Below are positions 9,817-17,285 of a DNA stretch of 17,285 nucleotides, in pieces (positions within the stretch are counted from its first letter, which is position 1; the number at the start of each line of letters is the position of its first letter). A program made the position numbers and the translations under genes. The DNA is taken from positions 1 to 17,285 of the forward strand of contig CAZYIM010000036.1 in assembly GCA_964647565.1 (NCBI GenBank), written 5' to 3'. The notes beneath the pieces were generated by a model. That model made no database searches and was not told the origin of the DNA. It saw only the letters and a program-made list of their open reading frames with translations. Origin of the DNA: an uncultured Methanosarcinales archaeon. GTDB lineage: Archaea; Nanobdellota; Nanobdellia; Woesearchaeales; CAZYIM01.

Positions 9817-9958
9817 ATAAAGACACTATTAATACAATACCGCCTTATTCTAGACATGGTAAAACCTTAACTTGTTTTCTGCAAATTACTAGTATTGATG
9901 GTTCAAAGGCTGATGGGACAATATTGTTCTAAGCCTCAAAGACTTGGAGGTAATACAA

Positions 9959-10726
9959 ATGAGTAAATTGGTTGAGAAACTAAAGAACAGCAGACTCGCA
10001 AGAGCTGGTCTGACAACATTATTGGTTGGGACATTGGTTGCTACTCCTTTATTGGCAGATAGTGCAATAGCCCAGGATAAAAAGCAAAAAGCCAAGACTG
10101 AATGCAAAGAATGCATTGAAGAGAAAGTCGAACAGGAAGAACATATGCATAAGAGAGACAGAAGAGGCCAAAGGGGTAAAAGAAATTCGAGAATAACATA
10201 TGATGGTGTCGAGAAACGGGTGAAGATCGCTGTTAAGGCAGGTAAGATTACAGAAGAACAAGCAAAGGAAAGGCTTGAAGCTTTTAAGGAGCTTTCTGAA
10301 AAAGGCGAAAAAGGCCGAAGAGGTCGAGGCATGAGAGGCAGGATGCATATGCGAGGGCATAAGCATTATGGTTTGAAAGATCATGATGGCCATAAAAAAC
10401 CTGGTATGAGATATCGTGGACATCGAGGTCATGGAATAAGAGGTCATTATGGACCTGGATTAAGAATGTATAGCTTCAGAGGCTACAAGCCAGGACGGTT
10501 TGGTCCAAGATTCAATCAGCAATGGCTGAAGATCTACAACAGTCCAGAGTTCAAGGAAGGTATAAAAGAGCTCAAAGAGAACATGGGGCAGCTCCGAAAG
10601 GATCTTCACAAGCATGGATATGAGACTCAAAAAGAGATGCAAAAAAAAGGTCGTGAAATTCGAGAAAGATTGCATGAGAAAATGAAAAAACTCGAGGAAG
10701 TACAAAAGGACCTTTACCATAAATAA
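9959..10726 (+). CDS. Hypothetical exported protein with a His/Gly/Arg-rich low-complexity region
   Basis: Perfect GGAGGT SD at 9946-9951 fixes ATG 9959 (the track start is 9944). The leader is nearly identical to that of the next gene. It contains an AVKAGKITEEQAKERL motif and a RGRGMRGRMHMRGHKH...GHRGHG stretch. Confidence 0.85.
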   Translation: MSKLVEKLKNSRLARAGLTTLLVGTLVATPLLADSAIAQDKKQKAKTECKECIEEKVEQEEHMHKRDRRGQRGKRNSRITYDGVEKRVKIAVKAGKITEEQAKERLEAFKELSEKGEKGRRGRGMRGRMHMRGHKHYGLKDHDGHKKPGMRYRGHRGHGIRGHYGPGLRMYSFRGYKPGRFGPRFNQQWLKIYNSPEFKEGIKELKENMGQLRKDLHKHGYETQKEMQKKGREIRERLHEKMKKLEEVQKDLYHK

Positions 10727-10864
10727 ACGGAGGCAAAGAAAATGAGTAAGTTGGTAGAGAAATTGAAAAATAGCAGGCTTGCAAGAGCTGGTCTGACAAC
10801 GTTATTTGTTGGGACCTTGGTTGCTACTCCGATAGTTGTAGATAGTCTATATGCGCAGGACAAG
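9959..10864 (+). repeat. Duplicated leader-coding segment (about 9959-10081 and 10742-10864)
   Basis: The first 30 codons encode MSKLVEKLKNSRLARAGLTTL[L/F]VGTLVATP in both genes. Confidence 0.92.
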
Positions 10865-11713
10865 CATCAGAAAAAAGAATGCATAGAGCAGAAATGCGAA
10901 AAGGATGGAGAGAAAGACATTCACATAATAGGAAGGGCCGGTGCCCGTAATAAAGCCCGGGCCGCATACATGTTTAAGATGCAGGAAAAGAAACAGAAGA
11001 TCGGCTATGTCGAAAAGAAGACTGACAAGTTTGTGATGGGCAGGGCAGTCACTCCAGATGGTGTGATTTCATATCATTTCCCTATACCTGAGTCTGGCGA
11101 ACTTTCTCAGACTGCAAAGCAAGAGATGGCACGATTCCAGGAGACAGTCGCAAAATACGAACTTAAGAAGTTTGAAGAAAGGAAAGGGCATAAAAGTGTC
11201 TCCACAATGTATGGAAAGAAACCTGGTGATTTCAGGCGAAGATTTGGCGGAGACATGAGAAAGCTTAGAGAAGGGATCCTAAAAGAGTATCGTGGAGGCT
11301 TAAAAGATCTTCAAGAGCTGAAGAATATAAAAGTAGAGGGTTTAAACGGCCTTGATGTACATATTGACTTTGAGGGTTTCTTAGAAGGCCTGGAATACCA
11401 GATAGGAAACATCTTAACAGATGTCGAAGAGGTTACTTCAGATTGGGAGAGCTATTCCCCAGAATACTTCGAAGGTCCTGAATTCAAGAAATGGGAAGGA
11501 AGCATGGAAGCTTGGGAAGAGGAAGTTGACCAATGGGCAGATGGAATCGGTGATTATGCAGAGAAAAATATCAAGTTCCAGCATAAGACATCTCCTGAAG
11601 GTGGAGTGAGCATATACATCAAGCTGGACAAGGATTTGTTAGAGAACTACAAGCCATTTCCAGTGATGCCTAAGATGCCAGCACCACCCCTACCACCCCC
11701 GATAAAGGAATAA
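10742..11713 (+). CDS. Hypothetical exported protein with a Pro-rich C-terminus
   Basis: GGAGG SD upstream; 323 aa; leader shared with 9959..10726; ends in PVMPKMPAPPLPPPIKE. Confidence 0.88.
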   Translation: MSKLVEKLKNSRLARAGLTTLFVGTLVATPIVVDSLYAQDKHQKKECIEQKCEKDGEKDIHIIGRAGARNKARAAYMFKMQEKKQKIGYVEKKTDKFVMGRAVTPDGVISYHFPIPESGELSQTAKQEMARFQETVAKYELKKFEERKGHKSVSTMYGKKPGDFRRRFGGDMRKLREGILKEYRGGLKDLQELKNIKVEGLNGLDVHIDFEGFLEGLEYQIGNILTDVEEVTSDWESYSPEYFEGPEFKKWEGSMEAWEEEVDQWADGIGDYAEKNIKFQHKTSPEGGVSIYIKLDKDLLENYKPFPVMPKMPAPPLPPPIKE

Positions 11714-13005: not shown

Positions 13006-13089
13006 TAGGACATTACAGAAACAAAGTTTCTGGGGTCCTAGAAATGCAATGCATTTCTATGATGCCAAAAAACTCCTAAGGAGGTTTTT
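13006..13089 (+). other. Three consecutive inverted repeats upstream of the TA operon
   Basis: TAGGAC-ATTA-CAGAAAC-AAA-GTTTCTG-GG-GTCCTA (13006-13040); perfect TAGAAATGCA-A-TGCATTTCTA (13039-13059); AAAAACTCCT-A-AGGAGGTTTTT (13068-13089), which contains the SD. Confidence 0.7.
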
Positions 13090-13093
13090 AAGC

Positions 13094-13291
13094 ATGGCAC
13101 AACTAATGACAAAAAGGATACCCTTATCTGAAGATAGATGGAAACAACTTGGAAGAATAAAGGAAGCAGGACAGACCTATGACGCGCTCATCGGTGAATT
13201 GATACAAGCACACAACAGACGGGAACTCGCGCAGTTCGCTAGGTCTGCAAAGTCAGGGAAAGGCAATTGGCATAAGCTTGAGGAAGCATGA
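13094..13291 (+). CDS. Putative type II antitoxin (ribbon-helix-helix-like)
   Basis: AGGAGGT SD at 13079-13085 supports ATG 13094 (65 aa). TKRIPLSEDRWKQLGRIKEAGQTYDALIGELI fits archaeal RHH antitoxins. It overlaps the toxin gene as ATGA. Confidence 0.8.
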   Translation: MAQLMTKRIPLSEDRWKQLGRIKEAGQTYDALIGELIQAHNRRELAQFARSAKSGKGNWHKLEEA

Positions 13292-13578
13292 AATTGTCTA
13301 ATGATATCCTTCTATCTGAAAAATCTATAGATTTCTTACAGTCTCTAGATGATAAAAGCAAGATCATTTGCAAAAAGAATCTTCAGAAACTTTCACAACC
13401 CTATCCTGGACGAGGAATAGGGGATAAAGAACAACTGGTTGTTGTAGGAGAAGAAGTATATCGGCTTCATATAAGAAGAACATACACAGCATTTTACATT
13501 ATTGATGAACAAGCTAAAATTGTTCGAATACTGGAAATACTGACTATTAAAGCAGCTCATAAAAAATATGGTTTCTGA
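13288..13578 (+). CDS. RelE/ParE-family type II toxin
   Basis: 96 aa with the RelE pattern ILLSEKSIDFLQSLD...LQKLSQPYP...YRLHIRRTYTAFYIIDEQAKIVRILEI. It lies directly downstream of a small RHH gene. Confidence 0.85.
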   Translation: MKLSNDILLSEKSIDFLQSLDDKSKIICKKNLQKLSQPYPGRGIGDKEQLVVVGEEVYRLHIRRTYTAFYIIDEQAKIVRILEILTIKAAHKKYGF

Positions 13579-13588
13579 ATAACAATCT

Positions 13589-15130
13589 TTAATATTTATC
13601 TTTCAACTCTGCCTTTTTCACCACTAACCTTGCTGTGTTCTCATTCTCTTCAACAACCTCAGAATCAGTTATTGCCAGCTTCTTCTTGAACATGGGCGCG
13701 TCAAGCACAAGTGATTCAAATTCTCCTCCTTCGCCAGCAATATTAACACCCAGCTTCTTATTCAACAGTCTCAGAGAATCTACATGTTTTTGGGTTATTT
13801 TTGCGCCTAACCAGCTTTCATCTAATCCCTCAGCAGCTATACTGCTAAATATAAGCTCATAACCCGCATCAAGAATTGCACGCATCTCCTTTTCCTGGTC
13901 CATGTGCCATAAAGGGGAATAAACTTTCAAACCAAGTGAATCTCCAATGATCTCAATCCGCTCTCTTTGATAGTTAGAGAATAAGGCGCCTGTAGCAACA
14001 CCCTCTATCTTGTATTTTTCTTTGGCAATGAAAAGGGCTTCTTTAAGATCATCAAGCTCCTTTTCCTTTTTACCTGCTGTTTCAGCCATTATTAGAGGTA
14101 TTTCCATGGCCTTGGCCTGCAGCTCGGCCATATGGATGTTTGGTGTGTGGAACATATATGAATCCGGATTTTTACTTCTCAATGTTATAAGGCAGTTTAC
14201 TTTAAAACCTCTATTGATCATTGTTTGGAGTGCAAAGCAGCTGTCCTTGCCAGAACTGAAAAGTACAGCAATATTAGGCATCTGGCTCTTTATGAAATCA
14301 AACTTGTACTTAAAGCCGTTTCTTTTTGCAAGCCTTGCAATGGCCCTGTCAAAGTTGCTGCCATACTGGGCTGCTCTTTTCTTCCTGTAGGCAAATTCTT
14401 TTGGTAAGCCCATATCCTCTGCAACCATTCTCAGGATCAGCTTACAATTCGTATCATTGATCTTGTATTTGGCAGGGATGCTCAGAGCATATTTAACCAA
14501 GCTGATATCTAAGAATGGCAGCTTTATCTCCTGACCAAGATCTTTAGCAAGCGCAAGATCTCTTGAAAGGTCCCGTTCATAGATGGCTTTCAAACCCTTG
14601 ACACACTCCTGGTTGATATCCTTGCTGTTCCTATGCCTTTCATAGCCCGCAAATATCTCTTCAGAGCCAAGACCTGAGAAAACAGTCTTTATCTTATCAT
14701 CTTTAGCCTGCTTCATTGCAAAATATAGAGGCAGGGCAACGCCCACTTTAACTACATTTGCTGTCTCTATTATATTGGTGACTTGCTTAACTGCAGCTTT
14801 CACACCATCCATATTAAGGTTTGACTTCCTTAGTTCAAATCCAAGCTCTTTTGATACTTTTTCTGCCCAGACAAGATCCTCAGGCTCCTTTAATGAGGCT
14901 GCAACAAAATTGGCAGTATAACATGTGAATTCATAGCCAAGCTTCTTACAGATGAAAGCAATTAGTGTAGAATCAATGCCTCCTGAGAACAGAATGCCGA
15001 ATTTCTTGTTTTTTGGCACTGTTTTCTTTATGGCTTCGACTAACAATCTTTCCAATTCCCTCTTAATTTCAGGAAGCGTCTCTTTGATTTCATTTGGAAG
15101 CTCTATGTTTTCATATCTTTCTGGATCCAT
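13589..15130 (-). CDS. Fusion of an asparagine-synthetase (synthetase, PP-loop) domain and diphthine--ammonia ligase (Dph6)
   Basis: The N-half has LFSGGIDS, FSGLGSEEIFAGY, LPFLD and RKKRAAQYGS. The C-half has LFSSGKDS, SYMFH, GALFSNYQRERI, SPLWH and GEGGEFES. Start placed at ATG 15130 because AACTTTTTAAAT lies 21 nt upstream. Confidence 0.9.
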   Translation of the reverse strand: MDPERYENIELPNEIKETLPEIKRELERLLVEAIKKTVPKNKKFGILFSGGIDSTLIAFICKKLGYEFTCYTANFVAASLKEPEDLVWAEKVSKELGFELRKSNLNMDGVKAAVKQVTNIIETANVVKVGVALPLYFAMKQAKDDKIKTVFSGLGSEEIFAGYERHRNSKDINQECVKGLKAIYERDLSRDLALAKDLGQEIKLPFLDISLVKYALSIPAKYKINDTNCKLILRMVAEDMGLPKEFAYRKKRAAQYGSNFDRAIARLAKRNGFKYKFDFIKSQMPNIAVLFSSGKDSCFALQTMINRGFKVNCLITLRSKNPDSYMFHTPNIHMAELQAKAMEIPLIMAETAGKKEKELDDLKEALFIAKEKYKIEGVATGALFSNYQRERIEIIGDSLGLKVYSPLWHMDQEKEMRAILDAGYELIFSSIAAEGLDESWLGAKITQKHVDSLRLLNKKLGVNIAGEGGEFESLVLDAPMFKKKLAITDSEVVEENENTARLVVKKAELKDKY

Positions 15131-15151
15131 ATCAAATAAGAACCTTAATTC

Positions 15152-15163
15152 ATTTAAAAAGTT
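15152..15163 (-). promoter_or_regulatory. Putative TATA promoter for the AsnB-domain/Dph6 fusion
   Basis: The minus strand reads AACTTTTTAAAT followed by 21 nt to ATG 15130. Confidence 0.55.
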
Positions 15164-15253
15164 AGTCAGAAACCCACATTCACTCAAAGAAAGCAACACA
15201 AAATATAAATAGGATATATTGAAATAGAGATAGATAGTAATAAATAGGGGTGT

Positions 15254-17285
15254 ATGCTGGTGAAAAATAAACTAATATTTCTGATAACATGTACATTGAT
15301 TTTCTTCATCTTTATGAATTTTGGTTATGCATTCTGCGCTTGTATAAACGCAGATGATCTGGCACCGGGATTATCTTGTGTTGAACTAAACGGGAGCTGT
15401 GATTATAGCATTGACAGCAGTTCAATCTTGTATAAAAACATCAAGCAGTTATGGCATGGTAATGTGCTCGCAGCCAGGAGTTCAGGATCCTGCAATATCC
15501 CTGATGTAACAGTCACACCTATTGAATCCACATGCTGCAGTGCATTGGGTGGCCCTGATATTGATGCTAATAACCAATGTGACTACGATCCAAATATCTA
15601 TGTCAATGCAGGCTGGAATAGATTGGGATTCAGGGTTGCAGTAGAACAACCGTTTGTATATCAGATAGCGGGTGATGCTATATTCGTGATTGCAGATGAT
15701 GATTGCGACGGTTGGCAGGAACGTTTGATCATTAATTTAAGCGATTATCGCAATCTAAACAATTGCACATGGACAACTCCCCAAAATATATCTTTTAATT
15801 ATGAATGGGCCCTAAATGTCACTGTCGCCTTGAATTCCAGCCAGCAGCAGGAATTTGATATGGGATGTTCAGTCGATGCAGACTGCCTTGATATTGTAAC
15901 TGACAATACATCCTGGTCTCTTCCAAACGGTGTCAGCACTGCTTGTTCAGCAGATAATATCTGTAGCTATGCCCTGAACACGACTCATGAGATCTATGGC
16001 AACCTTAAACATCTTTGGCAGGGTAATATTTTGGCAGCCAGGAGTTCAGGGACCTGTGAGATTCCAGATATAACAATAAATCCGATCGAAGCCACTTGCT
16101 GTCCTGCTTTGGGTGGACCTGATACTGATTATAATGAACTTTGCGATGCAGATCCTTTAATCTGGCTTACTCCAAGCTGGCTGCGCTTAGGATTTGCAAT
16201 ACCTGGCGAGCATGAATATGTATACATGGTTGCTAATGACGAGATACAGGCAATTAGTGACCGCTATTGTGATGCAACAAAAGAAATCCTGGCAATTAAC
16301 CTTAGTGATTATTTGATCCAGGAGTCTTGCGGCTGGCAATCACTAGATGCGATTGAGTATAAATATGGCAATACCAATCTGTTCAACATCAGCCTGACTC
16401 TAGCTCAAGAACCTGATTTTTCAGTTGCTTGTTCCCAGGATTCAGATTGTTTTGATATAATTGACAATGCCTCCTGGTTCCTTTCACCTGGTATTAGCGC
16501 TGCCTGCGGGGCAAACAATGTCTGTAGTTATGCATTGAATGACAGCTCTGAGATCTACAAGAATCTTAAGCATCTGTGGCAGGCTAATGTGATGGCTGCC
16601 AAAAGTTCAGGCTCGTGTGATATTCCAGATGCTTCTTTTAGACCAGTTGAATATACCTGCTGCAATGCTCTTGGAGGGCCAGATATAAACGGCAACAACC
16701 TCTGTGATCATGATCCTGCAATTTGGACTGACTGGTGGTGGATGCGTTTGGGATTCATATTGGAAGGCGAACATGCATATGTTTATGGAGTCCAAAATGA
16801 TGGAATTTCTGCATTTAATGACGTCTATTGTGACGGGACCTTAGATGGTTTTGTAATAAACCTGACTGAATATGTAAATCAAGGCAGTTGTAATTGGACT
16901 AATTTGGATCATGTTGAATACTTTAGTGGCTCAAACAAACTCTTCAATATCAGCTTAACATCTGGCCAGCAGTCAGAGTTCTCTGTTGCCTGCGCCCAGG
17001 ATTCAGATTGTGACGGCATTGTTGGCCAAGGCTGGTTCATGCCGCCTGGAGTGAATGCCAGCTGTGAAGAAGCTGATTCGATATGCAGCTATGAGCTTCA
17101 GACAGGTACTGAGGTAAAGGCCAATCTTGAGGACCTCTATTTAGGTTTTATGGAGTCGACTCAAAGCTCAGGCAACTGCAGCCCGCCATCCAACCAGGTC
17201 ACGCCTGTTGAAGCTACTTGTTGTGCTGCGCTTGGAGGTCCGGATATAGATCTAAACAATATGTGTGATGTAGATGTATCTGTTT
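15254..17285 (+). CDS. Large secreted Cys-rich repeat (surface) protein, 3'-truncated by the window and not in the ORF track
   Basis: Manual translation from ATG 15254 (GGGGTG SD-like at 15247-15252, TATA-like AAAATATAAATA near 15200-15211) is open for 677 codons to the window end. It begins with the signal peptide MLVKNKLIFLITCTLIFFIFMNFGYA and continues into tandem repeats. Confidence 0.92.
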   Translation, partial: MLVKNKLIFLITCTLIFFIFMNFGYAFCACINADDLAPGLSCVELNGSCDYSIDSSSILYKNIKQLWHGNVLAARSSGSCNIPDVTVTPIESTCCSALGGPDIDANNQCDYDPNIYVNAGWNRLGFRVAVEQPFVYQIAGDAIFVIADDDCDGWQERLIINLSDYRNLNNCTWTTPQNISFNYEWALNVTVALNSSQQQEFDMGCSVDADCLDIVTDNTSWSLPNGVSTACSADNICSYALNTTHEIYGNLKHLWQGNILAARSSGTCEIPDITINPIEATCCPALGGPDTDYNELCDADPLIWLTPSWLRLGFAIPGEHEYVYMVANDEIQAISDRYCDATKEILAINLSDYLIQESCGWQSLDAIEYKYGNTNLFNISLTLAQEPDFSVACSQDSDCFDIIDNASWFLSPGISAACGANNVCSYALNDSSEIYKNLKHLWQANVMAAKSSGSCDIPDASFRPVEYTCCNALGGPDINGNNLCDHDPAIWTDWWWMRLGFILEGEHAYVYGVQNDGISAFNDVYCDGTLDGFVINLTEYVNQGSCNWTNLDHVEYFSGSNKLFNISLTSGQQSEFSVACAQDSDCDGIVGQGWFMPPGVNASCEEADSICSYELQTGTEVKANLEDLYLGFMESTQSSGNCSPPSNQVTPVEATCCAALGGPDIDLNNMCDVDVSV
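15398..17285 (+). repeat. Intragenic tandem repeat with a 561-564 nt period (187-188 aa); three full units plus a partial fourth
   Basis: The CC of the TCCxALGGPD motif starts at 15533, 16097, 16658 and 17219, all in the same frame. GCAGCCAGGAGTTCAGG and CCCAGGATTCAGATTGT each occur twice as exact DNA copies. Confidence 0.95.

Follow-up and report, generated by a model that had tools for sequence, protein, structure and literature searches.

How does an archaeon come to encode a chain of domains that resemble the heads of bacterial type IV pilins, and what could such a protein do there? The question is raised by the 3' end of a 17,285-base stretch of DNA from an uncultured archaeon (hereafter the window), which makes up the first 17,285 bases of contig C36 (24,605 bases; GenBank CAZYIM010000036.1) in an assembly of 2.68 Mb and 86 contigs. 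The gene in question is an open reading frame (ORF) on the forward strand, 15254-17284, which has 677 codons and is still open at the 3' end of the window. An initial annotation, made from the letters alone, had read it as a secreted protein of repeated pilin heads captured from a bacterium. We are highly confident of the identity and the bacterial origin of the module from which the protein is built. The best explanation as a whole, namely that the gene encodes an exported four-head protein, made from a bacterial module that arrived by transfer and acting in an adhesin-like way, is one that we hold with moderate confidence.

A putatively exported protein of four modules

The repeated structure of the ORF is evident from its motifs: LGGPD recurs at residues 98, 286, 473 and 660, which gives a period of 187-188 aa, CxxDxDC at residues 205, 393 and 580, and E[IV]xxNL at residues 246, 433 and 620. 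The repeats are 43-58% identical to each other in pairwise comparison, and the Cys positions give 10 Cys for each complete repeat, so that the repeats of about 187 aa, their ten Cys and the motif pattern quoted in the initial annotation are all found in the ORF. Because a tandem-repeat finder working at the nucleotide level detected nothing inside the ORF, the copies appear to be old and diverged.

The window ends within the gene, and directly 3' of it lies a 100-N scaffold gap (C36 17286-17385). The missing part could be recovered from another assembly, whose 742-aa protein P0002 shows 100% identity wherever the two overlap, starts at Met21 and runs 85 residues beyond the window end, terminating in ...FANAGYY. 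Since the first codons past the gap in C36 are AGYY-stop, equal to the C-terminus of P0002, we take the full product to be 762 aa: a signal peptide and exactly four modules, in a frame that is intact across 762 codons, with 81 residues falling within the gap. Module 4 is slightly shorter than the others (profile positions 1-177 of 189). A variant fragment from another source, P0036, differs slightly from the protein and has a start identical to that of the ORF. The earlier count of at least four repeats thus stands as four, without its open end: no further repeat-like sequence occurs past the gap or elsewhere in the genome. The C-terminal anchor that had been expected in the rest of the gene was not found, as the complete 762-aa protein has no C-terminal transmembrane or sorting segment, and additional repeats or an anchor beyond the gap are ruled out by the AGYY-stop with which the post-gap sequence closes the gene.

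At its N-terminus the product has MLVKNK and then about 20 hydrophobic residues, which form the sole hydrophobic stretch of the protein (the five most hydrophobic 19-aa windows all begin at residues 2-13) and bear out the Sec-type signal peptide that had been proposed. In pilins, a hydrophobic N-terminal part of the first helix, α1-N, holds the subunit in the membrane and in the fibre core. Neither this element nor the prepilin processing site is found here: the motif G|FxxxE is absent from the archaeal protein by regular expression and by scans of P0001 and P0002 with N_methyl (PF07963) and TIGR02532, and none of the modules has a hydrophobic α1-N of about 25 residues before the following part of the helix, α1-C, which is preceded instead by a Cys-rich hairpin. 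Motif search, family scans and hydrophobicity therefore agree with the earlier statement that cleavage site and α1-N are lacking and, because both were looked for and both are missing, the modules should be unable to polymerise into a pilus. Archaea do have type IV filaments, and the protein might on that ground be considered a working subunit of one. However, the class III signal motif and α1-N are missing from every module, and four heads in one chain cannot pack as single pilins do. We give this reading practically no credence, since the absence of its defining features refutes it, barring an unknown assembly route.

Sequence relatives of the module

Searches of Pfam and NCBIfam with the archaeal protein gave only sub-threshold chance matches (BatD, 12.9 bits; GGGWT, 12.2 bits), and no curated model of an archaeal S-layer or known Ca-binding repeat family in either collection was matched, so that ordinary archaeal repeats of these kinds, which had been named as the alternative, do not emerge as the closest homologues. 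Sequence searches of the PDB with the protein and with a 56-row profile returned chance matches only (E 0.18 or worse), and the ESM Atlas gave no usable match.

The relatives were instead found with a profile of the four repeats, by an exhaustive hmmsearch over 1,835,955,588 cluster representatives. This profile search, which the initial annotation had suggested, yielded 128 representatives at E ≤ 1e-3, 54 at E ≤ 1e-10 and 19 at E ≤ 1e-30; the family that contains the repeat is rare. A Pfam scan that covered 124 of the 128 matches identified two true prepilins with an N_methyl domain, P0065 (193 aa, E 2.2e-9 in the profile search) and P0130 (192 aa, E 9.4e-4). These carry the prepilin motif GFTL[IL]ELM (GFTLIELMIVVAII or GFTLLELMVAVVII), and among NCBIfam models they score best against the Myxococcus PilA equivalog (NF041775), over α1 only. 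The archaeal helix (HEIYGNLKHLWQGNILAA) aligns with pilin α1-C (TAEAVDMLDKIYKGGSSYY), and a common signature runs throughout the archaeal repeats and the pilins: C.(F/I)P...TP.E.TCC..GGPD.D.(D/N)..CD.DP..W...W..L.F...H.(Y/F).Y...D.(D/Y)CD.

Aligned by hhalign, the repeats match a set of 10 pilin-type proteins with 99.3% probability and E 8e-21 over 106 columns. The match begins in α1-C, at residue 40 of P0065, and the archaeal repeats are about 25-30% identical to pilins. Compositional chance, as a source of likeness among Cys-rich sequences, is ruled out by the hmmsearch and hhalign scores. The similarity to pilin heads, proposed in the initial annotation, is confirmed by the prepilin matches and by the hhalign score. 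Judged from its sequence, the archaeal protein is thus a homologue of type IV pilin heads and not a pilin. A sequence relation to archaeal type IV pilins or archaellins was seen in none of the searches.

Predicted structure of the module

An AlphaFold2 model of module 2, built on the 56-row alignment, is confident (pLDDT 90.7, pTM 0.87). A β-hairpin at residues 23-37 corresponds to the four-Cys linker. Behind it come a helix of 20 residues (42-61), a long loop that bears the CC/GGPD/CD signature and includes two short helices, and finally strands at 119-176. The predicted helix and strands fit the arrangement of a pilin head, in which α1-C would lie against an antiparallel β-sheet. Compared with the PDB by Foldseek, it matched nothing at E ≤ 0.001, the best entries (E 0.41) being unrelated proteins. 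In an exhaustive structure search against 48,161 chains with VIA-align, ranks 1-10 and 12-14 were all type IV pilin or pilus entries. The top match was Pseudomonas aeruginosa PilE (4noa; Z 4.8, rmsd 3.5, 90 residues aligned); the Myxococcus xanthus pilus (8tj2_C) was matched with Z 4.1 over 95 residues at 18% identity, and the other pilins included ComP, Thermus thermophilus PilA4, PilX and gonococcal pilin.

Because the Z values of the module are weak, the homologous prepilin P0065 was modelled as well. Its model (pLDDT 91.0) consists of a helix at residues 13-62 and subsequent strands, and finds the same entry, 4noa, as its top match, with Z 7.5 and rmsd 2.5 over 88 aligned residues, in the head region only; ranks 1-17 are all pilins or pseudopilins. 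Taken together with the sequence link, the P0065 results make the fold assignment of the module sound. Of the structural check that had been proposed, the AlphaFold half gave a confident helix-then-strands model while Foldseek gave no match, and pilins rose to the top in VIA-align only; the absence of a helix-and-sheet fold and of pilin matches, which would have spoken against the assignment, was not what these searches found.

Distribution of the family and origin of the array

The domain occurs in 0 of 40 genomes of the same order and in 0 of 400 of the same phylum (these 400 all at least 90% complete; the two sets overlap), and it is foreign to this archaeal lineage. Bacterial loci were sought in one genome per species with conserved peptides of the pilin-type members (a 10-row alignment, A4). 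This gave 19 loci, 17 of them in Myxococcota or Myxococcales metagenome-assembled genomes (MAGs), one in 'Deltaproteobacteria ... MYXO-49' and one in 'uncultured proteobacterium'. Full prepilins of about 190 aa are encoded at 13 of the 19 and a 749-aa protein with a C-terminal head at one; four code for multidomain proteins that contain the head module two or three times, occur in MAGs which also have the pilins and, in two cases, begin with a lipoprotein-type signal; one locus ends at a contig edge. The bacterial source named in the initial annotation fits these loci, which all lie in Myxococcota-like MAGs, although the scan patterns were biased toward them. Independent markers agree with this source: P0006 carries the myxobacterial cysteine-rich acidic repeat (myxo_disulf_rpt), and other profile matches bear DUF4215, Lcl_C, Dicty_CTDC or IPTL-CTERM. 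A scan of genome contigs with the archaeal repeat alignment (A1) produced 251 pattern matches, none of which was confirmed.

Several Myxococcota-like proteins look intermediate between pilin and module (P0047, P0098, P0105, P0086, P0041 and P0068, those of the P0048-P0063 type, and L019). Some, among them P0047, P0098, P0105 and P0086, lack the G|F site but retain, downstream of an N-terminal extension, a membrane helix that resembles pilin α1 ('...AVAIPAFIKYxRRAKTxEA...'). Others measure 450-760 aa and carry a single pilin head at the C-terminus, in many cases together with a lipoprotein-type signal. An acidic tail, ...E-T-E or similar, closes nearly all of these proteins.

The best matches of the archaeal repeat are multidomain proteins, not pilins (P0003, E 2e-80; P0006, E 5.5e-67; P0004; P0007), and in them the whole 187-aa unit recurs, alternating with a second, shorter module type. 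To place the repeats, a FastTree phylogeny was calculated for 194 domain instances, with nine proteins left out: seven as doubtful, namely P0075, P0081, P0087, P0100 and P0119 (weak; Ig, cadherin or β-helix repeats), P0058 and P0129, and two, P0001 and P0036, as duplicates of P0002. A second tree was made with IQ-TREE (LG+G4, 1000 ultrafast bootstraps) from a hand-picked subset of 45 sequences. The four archaeal repeats are monophyletic in FastTree (support 1.0), where pilins and proteins with a single C-terminal head form a separate clade, and the archaeal repeats lie outside the pilin clade in both trees. FastTree groups the archaeal clade with the second ('B') modules, with support of 0.78-0.85. 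IQ-TREE makes it the sister of the low-GC-looking tandem fragments P0031, P0039 and P0056 (UFBoot 95) and puts this group beside the first module of P0004 (98), within the first ('A') modules, with weak deeper nodes; the module architecture agrees with this placement among first-type modules. Trees of the kind that had been suggested thus join the repeats to bacterial head modules and not to the pilins.

The three fragments, of low-GC-looking origin, represent another tandem array built from this module, some copies of which have lost the CC and GGPD motifs (SCYD...ID). Two scans of metagenome contigs (with alignment A5 and with P0039) confirmed no match, so that these fragments are without a locus, and a search for longer forms of P0031 found none.

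What do these results imply for the idea that a pilin head was captured and concatenated in the archaeon? The bacterial type of the head and its amplification in tandem hold up, but a pilin stripped in the archaeon itself becomes improbable, as head-only modules already exist in bacteria; from the sequences, the archaeon probably did not itself capture and strip a pilin. On our own reading, bacteria lost α1-N and reused the head as a module; one module type would then have been passed to the archaeal lineage, or to a low-GC intermediate, and amplified there. We infer the direction, from pilin to module, because the pilin fold is universal and head-only forms are narrowly distributed, and not from a rooted analysis. 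Gene transfer between domains is the most likely source of the array.

The gene in its archaeal genome

All detectable relatives of the module look bacterial and the gene adjoins a scaffold gap, as might be expected if a bacterial gene had been wrongly joined to archaeal DNA in assembly or binning. The evidence from the locus points the other way. The divergent neighbour, a fusion of asparagine-synthase-like and diphthamide-synthase parts, is matched in 40 of 40 genomes of the same order, in about half of them at full length with 48-58% identity; in many of the others the two parts are separate genes. A contig of 1073 bases assembled from a single sequencing run, X3, covers 14353-15425 without differences and thereby leads from the neighbour gene into the ORF. 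The GC content of the ORF (0.43) is near that of the contig (0.39) and the genome (0.38) and far from that of bacterial loci (0.49-0.73), the sequon load described below is archaeal in style, and past the gap the contig resumes with the gene's own last codons. Because the neighbour is matched throughout the order, the run contig bridges the two genes and the GC content is near that of the contig, we conclude that the gene belongs to the archaeal chromosome and is not a binning artefact; a false join we regard as very improbable indeed. The DNA is held by seven sequencing runs, marine or seawater metagenomes from two studies, whose single-run assembled contigs match the window without differences; no RNA run holding the sequence is among the runs listed.

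That the host is an archaeon, as initially supposed, and belongs to a small-genome order is supported by the neighbour gene, by the genomes of its same-order relatives (0.6-2.1 Mb) and by an STT3/AglB gene, a family that among the control genomes was matched only in the four archaeal ones. The genome itself (G000; 2.68 Mb, 86.9% complete, 1.85% contamination) exceeds all 40 same-order genomes listed, and no other member of its family is present in the genome collection.

Proposed product and possible roles

The mature protein contains 20 N-x-S/T sequons in 735 aa. Shuffles matched for composition had 9.0 ± 2.6, and one in 5000 contained as many as 20; the density of 2.7 per 100 aa compares with 0.22 in the bacterial homologues. 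Several of the sequons recur from module to module at an equivalent position (N-L-S/T at 161, 349 and 536; N-I-S at 378 and 565). Since sequons are many and AglB is present, N-glycosylation of the protein can reasonably be assumed.

In the history that we propose, the module would have arisen in Myxococcota-type bacteria, which have it in true prepilins and, devoid of α1-N, in multidomain lipoproteins; horizontal transfer would have brought it into the archaeal lineage, where amplification to four copies and the gain of N-glycosylation sequons followed. The product would leave the cell by the Sec route as a 762-aa glycoprotein, export and signal cleavage being suggested by the signal peptide. 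Each module would then be equivalent to a type IV pilin minus its polymerising part, with the amphipathic α1-C helix, the signature loop and the β strands kept and a four-Cys hairpin ahead of them. The 10 conserved Cys suggest up to five disulfides in each of four rigid, stand-alone modules, and the acidic GGPDxDxNxxCDxDP loop may contain a Ca2+ site. As the complete protein has no anchor, it may be either released or held non-covalently at the envelope.

Pilin heads are described as the exposed, ligand-contacting surface of the fibre in PMC11046646, and a multivalent extracellular binding role is suggested for the archaeal protein on that ground. As an adhesin, by this analogy, it is a possibility that we put forward tentatively, somewhat short of calling it probable. 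If the array instead served as a structural part of the envelope, glycosylated and stabilised by Ca2+ and disulfides, it would need no specific ligand. The mature protein is strongly acidic (D+E 13%, K+R 3.1%) and has 40 Cys, its 20 sequons and an acidic DxDxN loop in each module, all of which would suit such a building block. However, it lacks an anchor, it matches no Pfam or NCBIfam model, S-layer families included, and the absence of the domain from all 40 and 400 relatives is unexpected for a core envelope part, so that we think this role unlikely.

The initial annotation went further and saw in the protein a mimic of the pilus or a decoy. The head array would then imitate the surface of the myxobacterial pilus and bind its receptors or ligands, or would distract a pilus-dependent predator, a pilus-specific phage or a partner cell. 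The modules are indeed homologous to the part of the pilin that decorates the fibre surface, as described in PMC11046646, and the relatives found come from Myxococcota-like MAGs. However, the low identity of the repeats to pilins and their grouping with non-pilin modules imply that any mimicry would be of lipoproteins and not of the pilus, and we consider mimicry or a decoy function decidedly improbable. A bolder idea is that the four linked heads might pack like adjacent pilus subunits and so form a single-chain 'pilus without a core'.

Several observations weigh against the explanation that we favour, an exported adhesin-like protein made from a transferred bacterial module. The protein is complete and has no recognisable anchor, which leaves its surface location putative, and the term adhesin rests on analogy with pilin heads. 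The structural matches of the module are weak, all with Z < 5, and such values can reflect a common arrangement; Foldseek came back empty-handed (best E 0.41), and no solved structure is a sequence relative of the module. The two trees differ on the nearest bacterial module type, 'B' in FastTree and 'A' in IQ-TREE, and the count of 19 out of 19 Myxococcota-like loci is biased because the scan patterns were derived from Myxococcota-like pilins. No pilus-machinery genes lie within 5 kb of two Myxococcota pilin loci (L010 and L017). Finally, the gene is known from one MAG and fragments, and its last 81 residues are taken from another assembly.

Features of the window and contig

Coordinates are collected in Table 1. 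The acidic loop of module 2 listed there is a candidate Ca2+ site.

Table 1. Features of the gene and its surroundings, in window coordinates unless marked C36; the upstream region as listed is 15200..15253 (+).
Feature	Position	Strand	Basis
A/T-rich TATA-like stretch AAAATATAAATA	15200-15211	+	read from sequence; putative promoter
GGGGTG just 5' of ATG	15247-15252	+	read from sequence; putative ribosome-binding site
Start and Sec-type signal peptide, aa 1-27 (MLVKNK, ~20 hydrophobic residues, GYA/F)	15254..15334	+	putative cleavage site
Module 1, aa 28-204, Cys linker shortened	15335..15865	+	alignment A1, HMM coordinates
Module 2, aa 205-392: Cys-knot hairpin, α1-C-like helix, acidic CC/GGPD loop, β strands	15866..16429	+	alignment, HMM, model
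Helix of module 2, aa 246-265 (EIYGNLKHLWQGNILAA...)	15989..16048	+	aligns with 'KTAEAVDMLDKIYKGG' of prepilin P0065
Acidic loop LGGPDTDYNELCDADP of module 2, family signature	16109..16156	+	columns nearly invariant (A2), aligned to pilins
Module 3, aa 393-579	16430..16990	+	alignment, HMM
Module 4, first 98 residues; remainder in 100-N gap	16991..17285	+	alignment A1, P0002
Gene end AGYY-TAA, outside window	C36 17386-17400	+	post-gap sequence
Divergent neighbour, asparagine-synthase-like + diphthamide-synthase fusion	13589..15199	-	Pfam PF01902, PF00733

Elsewhere in the window, two adjacent ORFs on the forward strand (9944-10726 and 10742-11713; 260 and 323 aa) share a near-identical N-terminus (MSKLVEKLKNSRLARAGLTTL.VGTLVATP) and then diverge. 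The first encodes an extremely basic product with a high content of His, Arg, Gly and Lys, neither ORF has a Pfam family, and the region 9944-11713 has the strongest purine skew of the window (GC skew 0.30, AT skew 0.33). At the start of the window, three ORFs (3-596, 593-1354 and 1351-2166, all +) follow each other head to tail, the stop codon of one overlapping the start codon of the next; the second shares with the third the beginning M(M)N(K/Q)PIEAGSGK, none of the three has a Pfam match, and together they look like a lineage-specific paralogue array. Two overlapping small genes just upstream of the neighbour gene (13049-13291 and 13288-13578, +) give weak matches to DUF7557 and then to a ParE toxin, at E of about 6e-4 each and below the cut-offs, and from these are possibly a toxin-antitoxin pair. 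Outside the window, at C36 20815-22329 (L030 3430-4944), a convergent, tail-to-tail pair of genes encodes TrmB-family regulators; the two genes that flank the pair have PEP-utiliser mobile domains.

Discussion

How does the archaeal protein relate to known systems? With the Myxococcota prepilins (P0065, P0130, L010-L018 and L020-L023) the modules have in common the α1-C helix, the TCC/GGPD/DLDCD signature and the rear β strands, and both match the same solved pilins in fold. The signature of the pilin family itself reads C.FP..Q..TP.E.TCC..GGPD.D.DD.CD.DP..W...W..L.F...H.F.Y...DLDCD. Each prepilin consists of a single domain, is about 190 aa long and has a GFTLIELM class III signal and a 50-residue α1; in the archaeal protein the signal is of the Sec type, α1-N is missing, the head is present four times, a Cys hairpin and C-terminal strands are added, and sequons are numerous. 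The nearest curated model is typeIV_PilA_Myxo (NF041775) and the nearest solved relative by fold is M. xanthus PilA (8tj2). Because NF041775 matches the Myxococcota prepilins over α1 only and far under its cut-off (56.7 against 400 bits), the heads of this family differ from that of M. xanthus PilA.

The likeness to the bacterial multidomain proteins (P0003, P0004, P0006, P0007 = L026, P0010 = L028 and P0012 = L027) is closer and extends to the whole 187-aa unit, including the linker C..D.DC...PPG...C...C and a '...LT..QQ.GF' tail that both they and the archaeal repeats possess. Profile positions 1-186 are covered in P0006 and P0007, the multidomain E-values range from 2e-80 to 5e-43, and the archaeal protein has every feature of the complete module: four-Cys linker, helix, signature, W..L.F, H.YVY, D.DCD and C-terminal strands. 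The differences lie in how the module is used. The bacterial proteins alternate two or three module types, while the archaeal protein has one type four times over; their N-termini vary, many with a lipoprotein-type signal, and some include IPTL-CTERM, Lcl_C, DUF4215 or Ig-like domains; and their amino-acid composition suggests a high GC content (0.59-0.70 for the four mapped loci), with almost no sequons. Bacterial targeting of the lipoprotein or exosortase type and alternating modules are absent from the archaeal protein, which has no C-terminal sorting signal. On this comparison it belongs with an undescribed head-module family, lacking α1-N, of Myxococcota-like bacteria.

Two other groups are instructive. 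By their entry titles, 4noa ('Truncated minor pilin PilE') and 1qve ('truncated K122-4 pilin') are heads without the N-terminal helix; such laboratory-truncated pilins are the best structural matches of the module, but they are engineered, whereas the archaeal truncation is natural and occurs in tandem. Archaeal type IV pilins and archaellins are of the same broad superfamily and have class III signals, hydrophobic N-terminal helices and prepilin peptidase processing; their class III signal and N-terminal helix are missing from this protein.

Type IV pilins rank among the prokaryotic surface proteins that have been studied most, and their heads are usually familiar only as the variable outer region of a subunit within the fibre. 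In open-access text we found no description of natural pilin heads without α1-N, whether in tandem or stand-alone (a literal word matching, and weak evidence), and no curated Pfam or NCBIfam model covers the head module. The pilin head, including α1-C, here appears as an independent, reusable domain and as a new domain family to be defined, one that uncultured Myxococcota employ in many multidomain surface proteins beyond the reach of curated models. The archaeal array is in addition a clean case of a bacterial surface module that has crossed into archaea. Its lineage has small genomes, is probably host-dependent and offers few molecular handles, and the protein is a candidate for contact with other cells. 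If the array does engage Myxococcota, this would be a cell-cell interaction between domains that is built on a stolen bacterial surface module.

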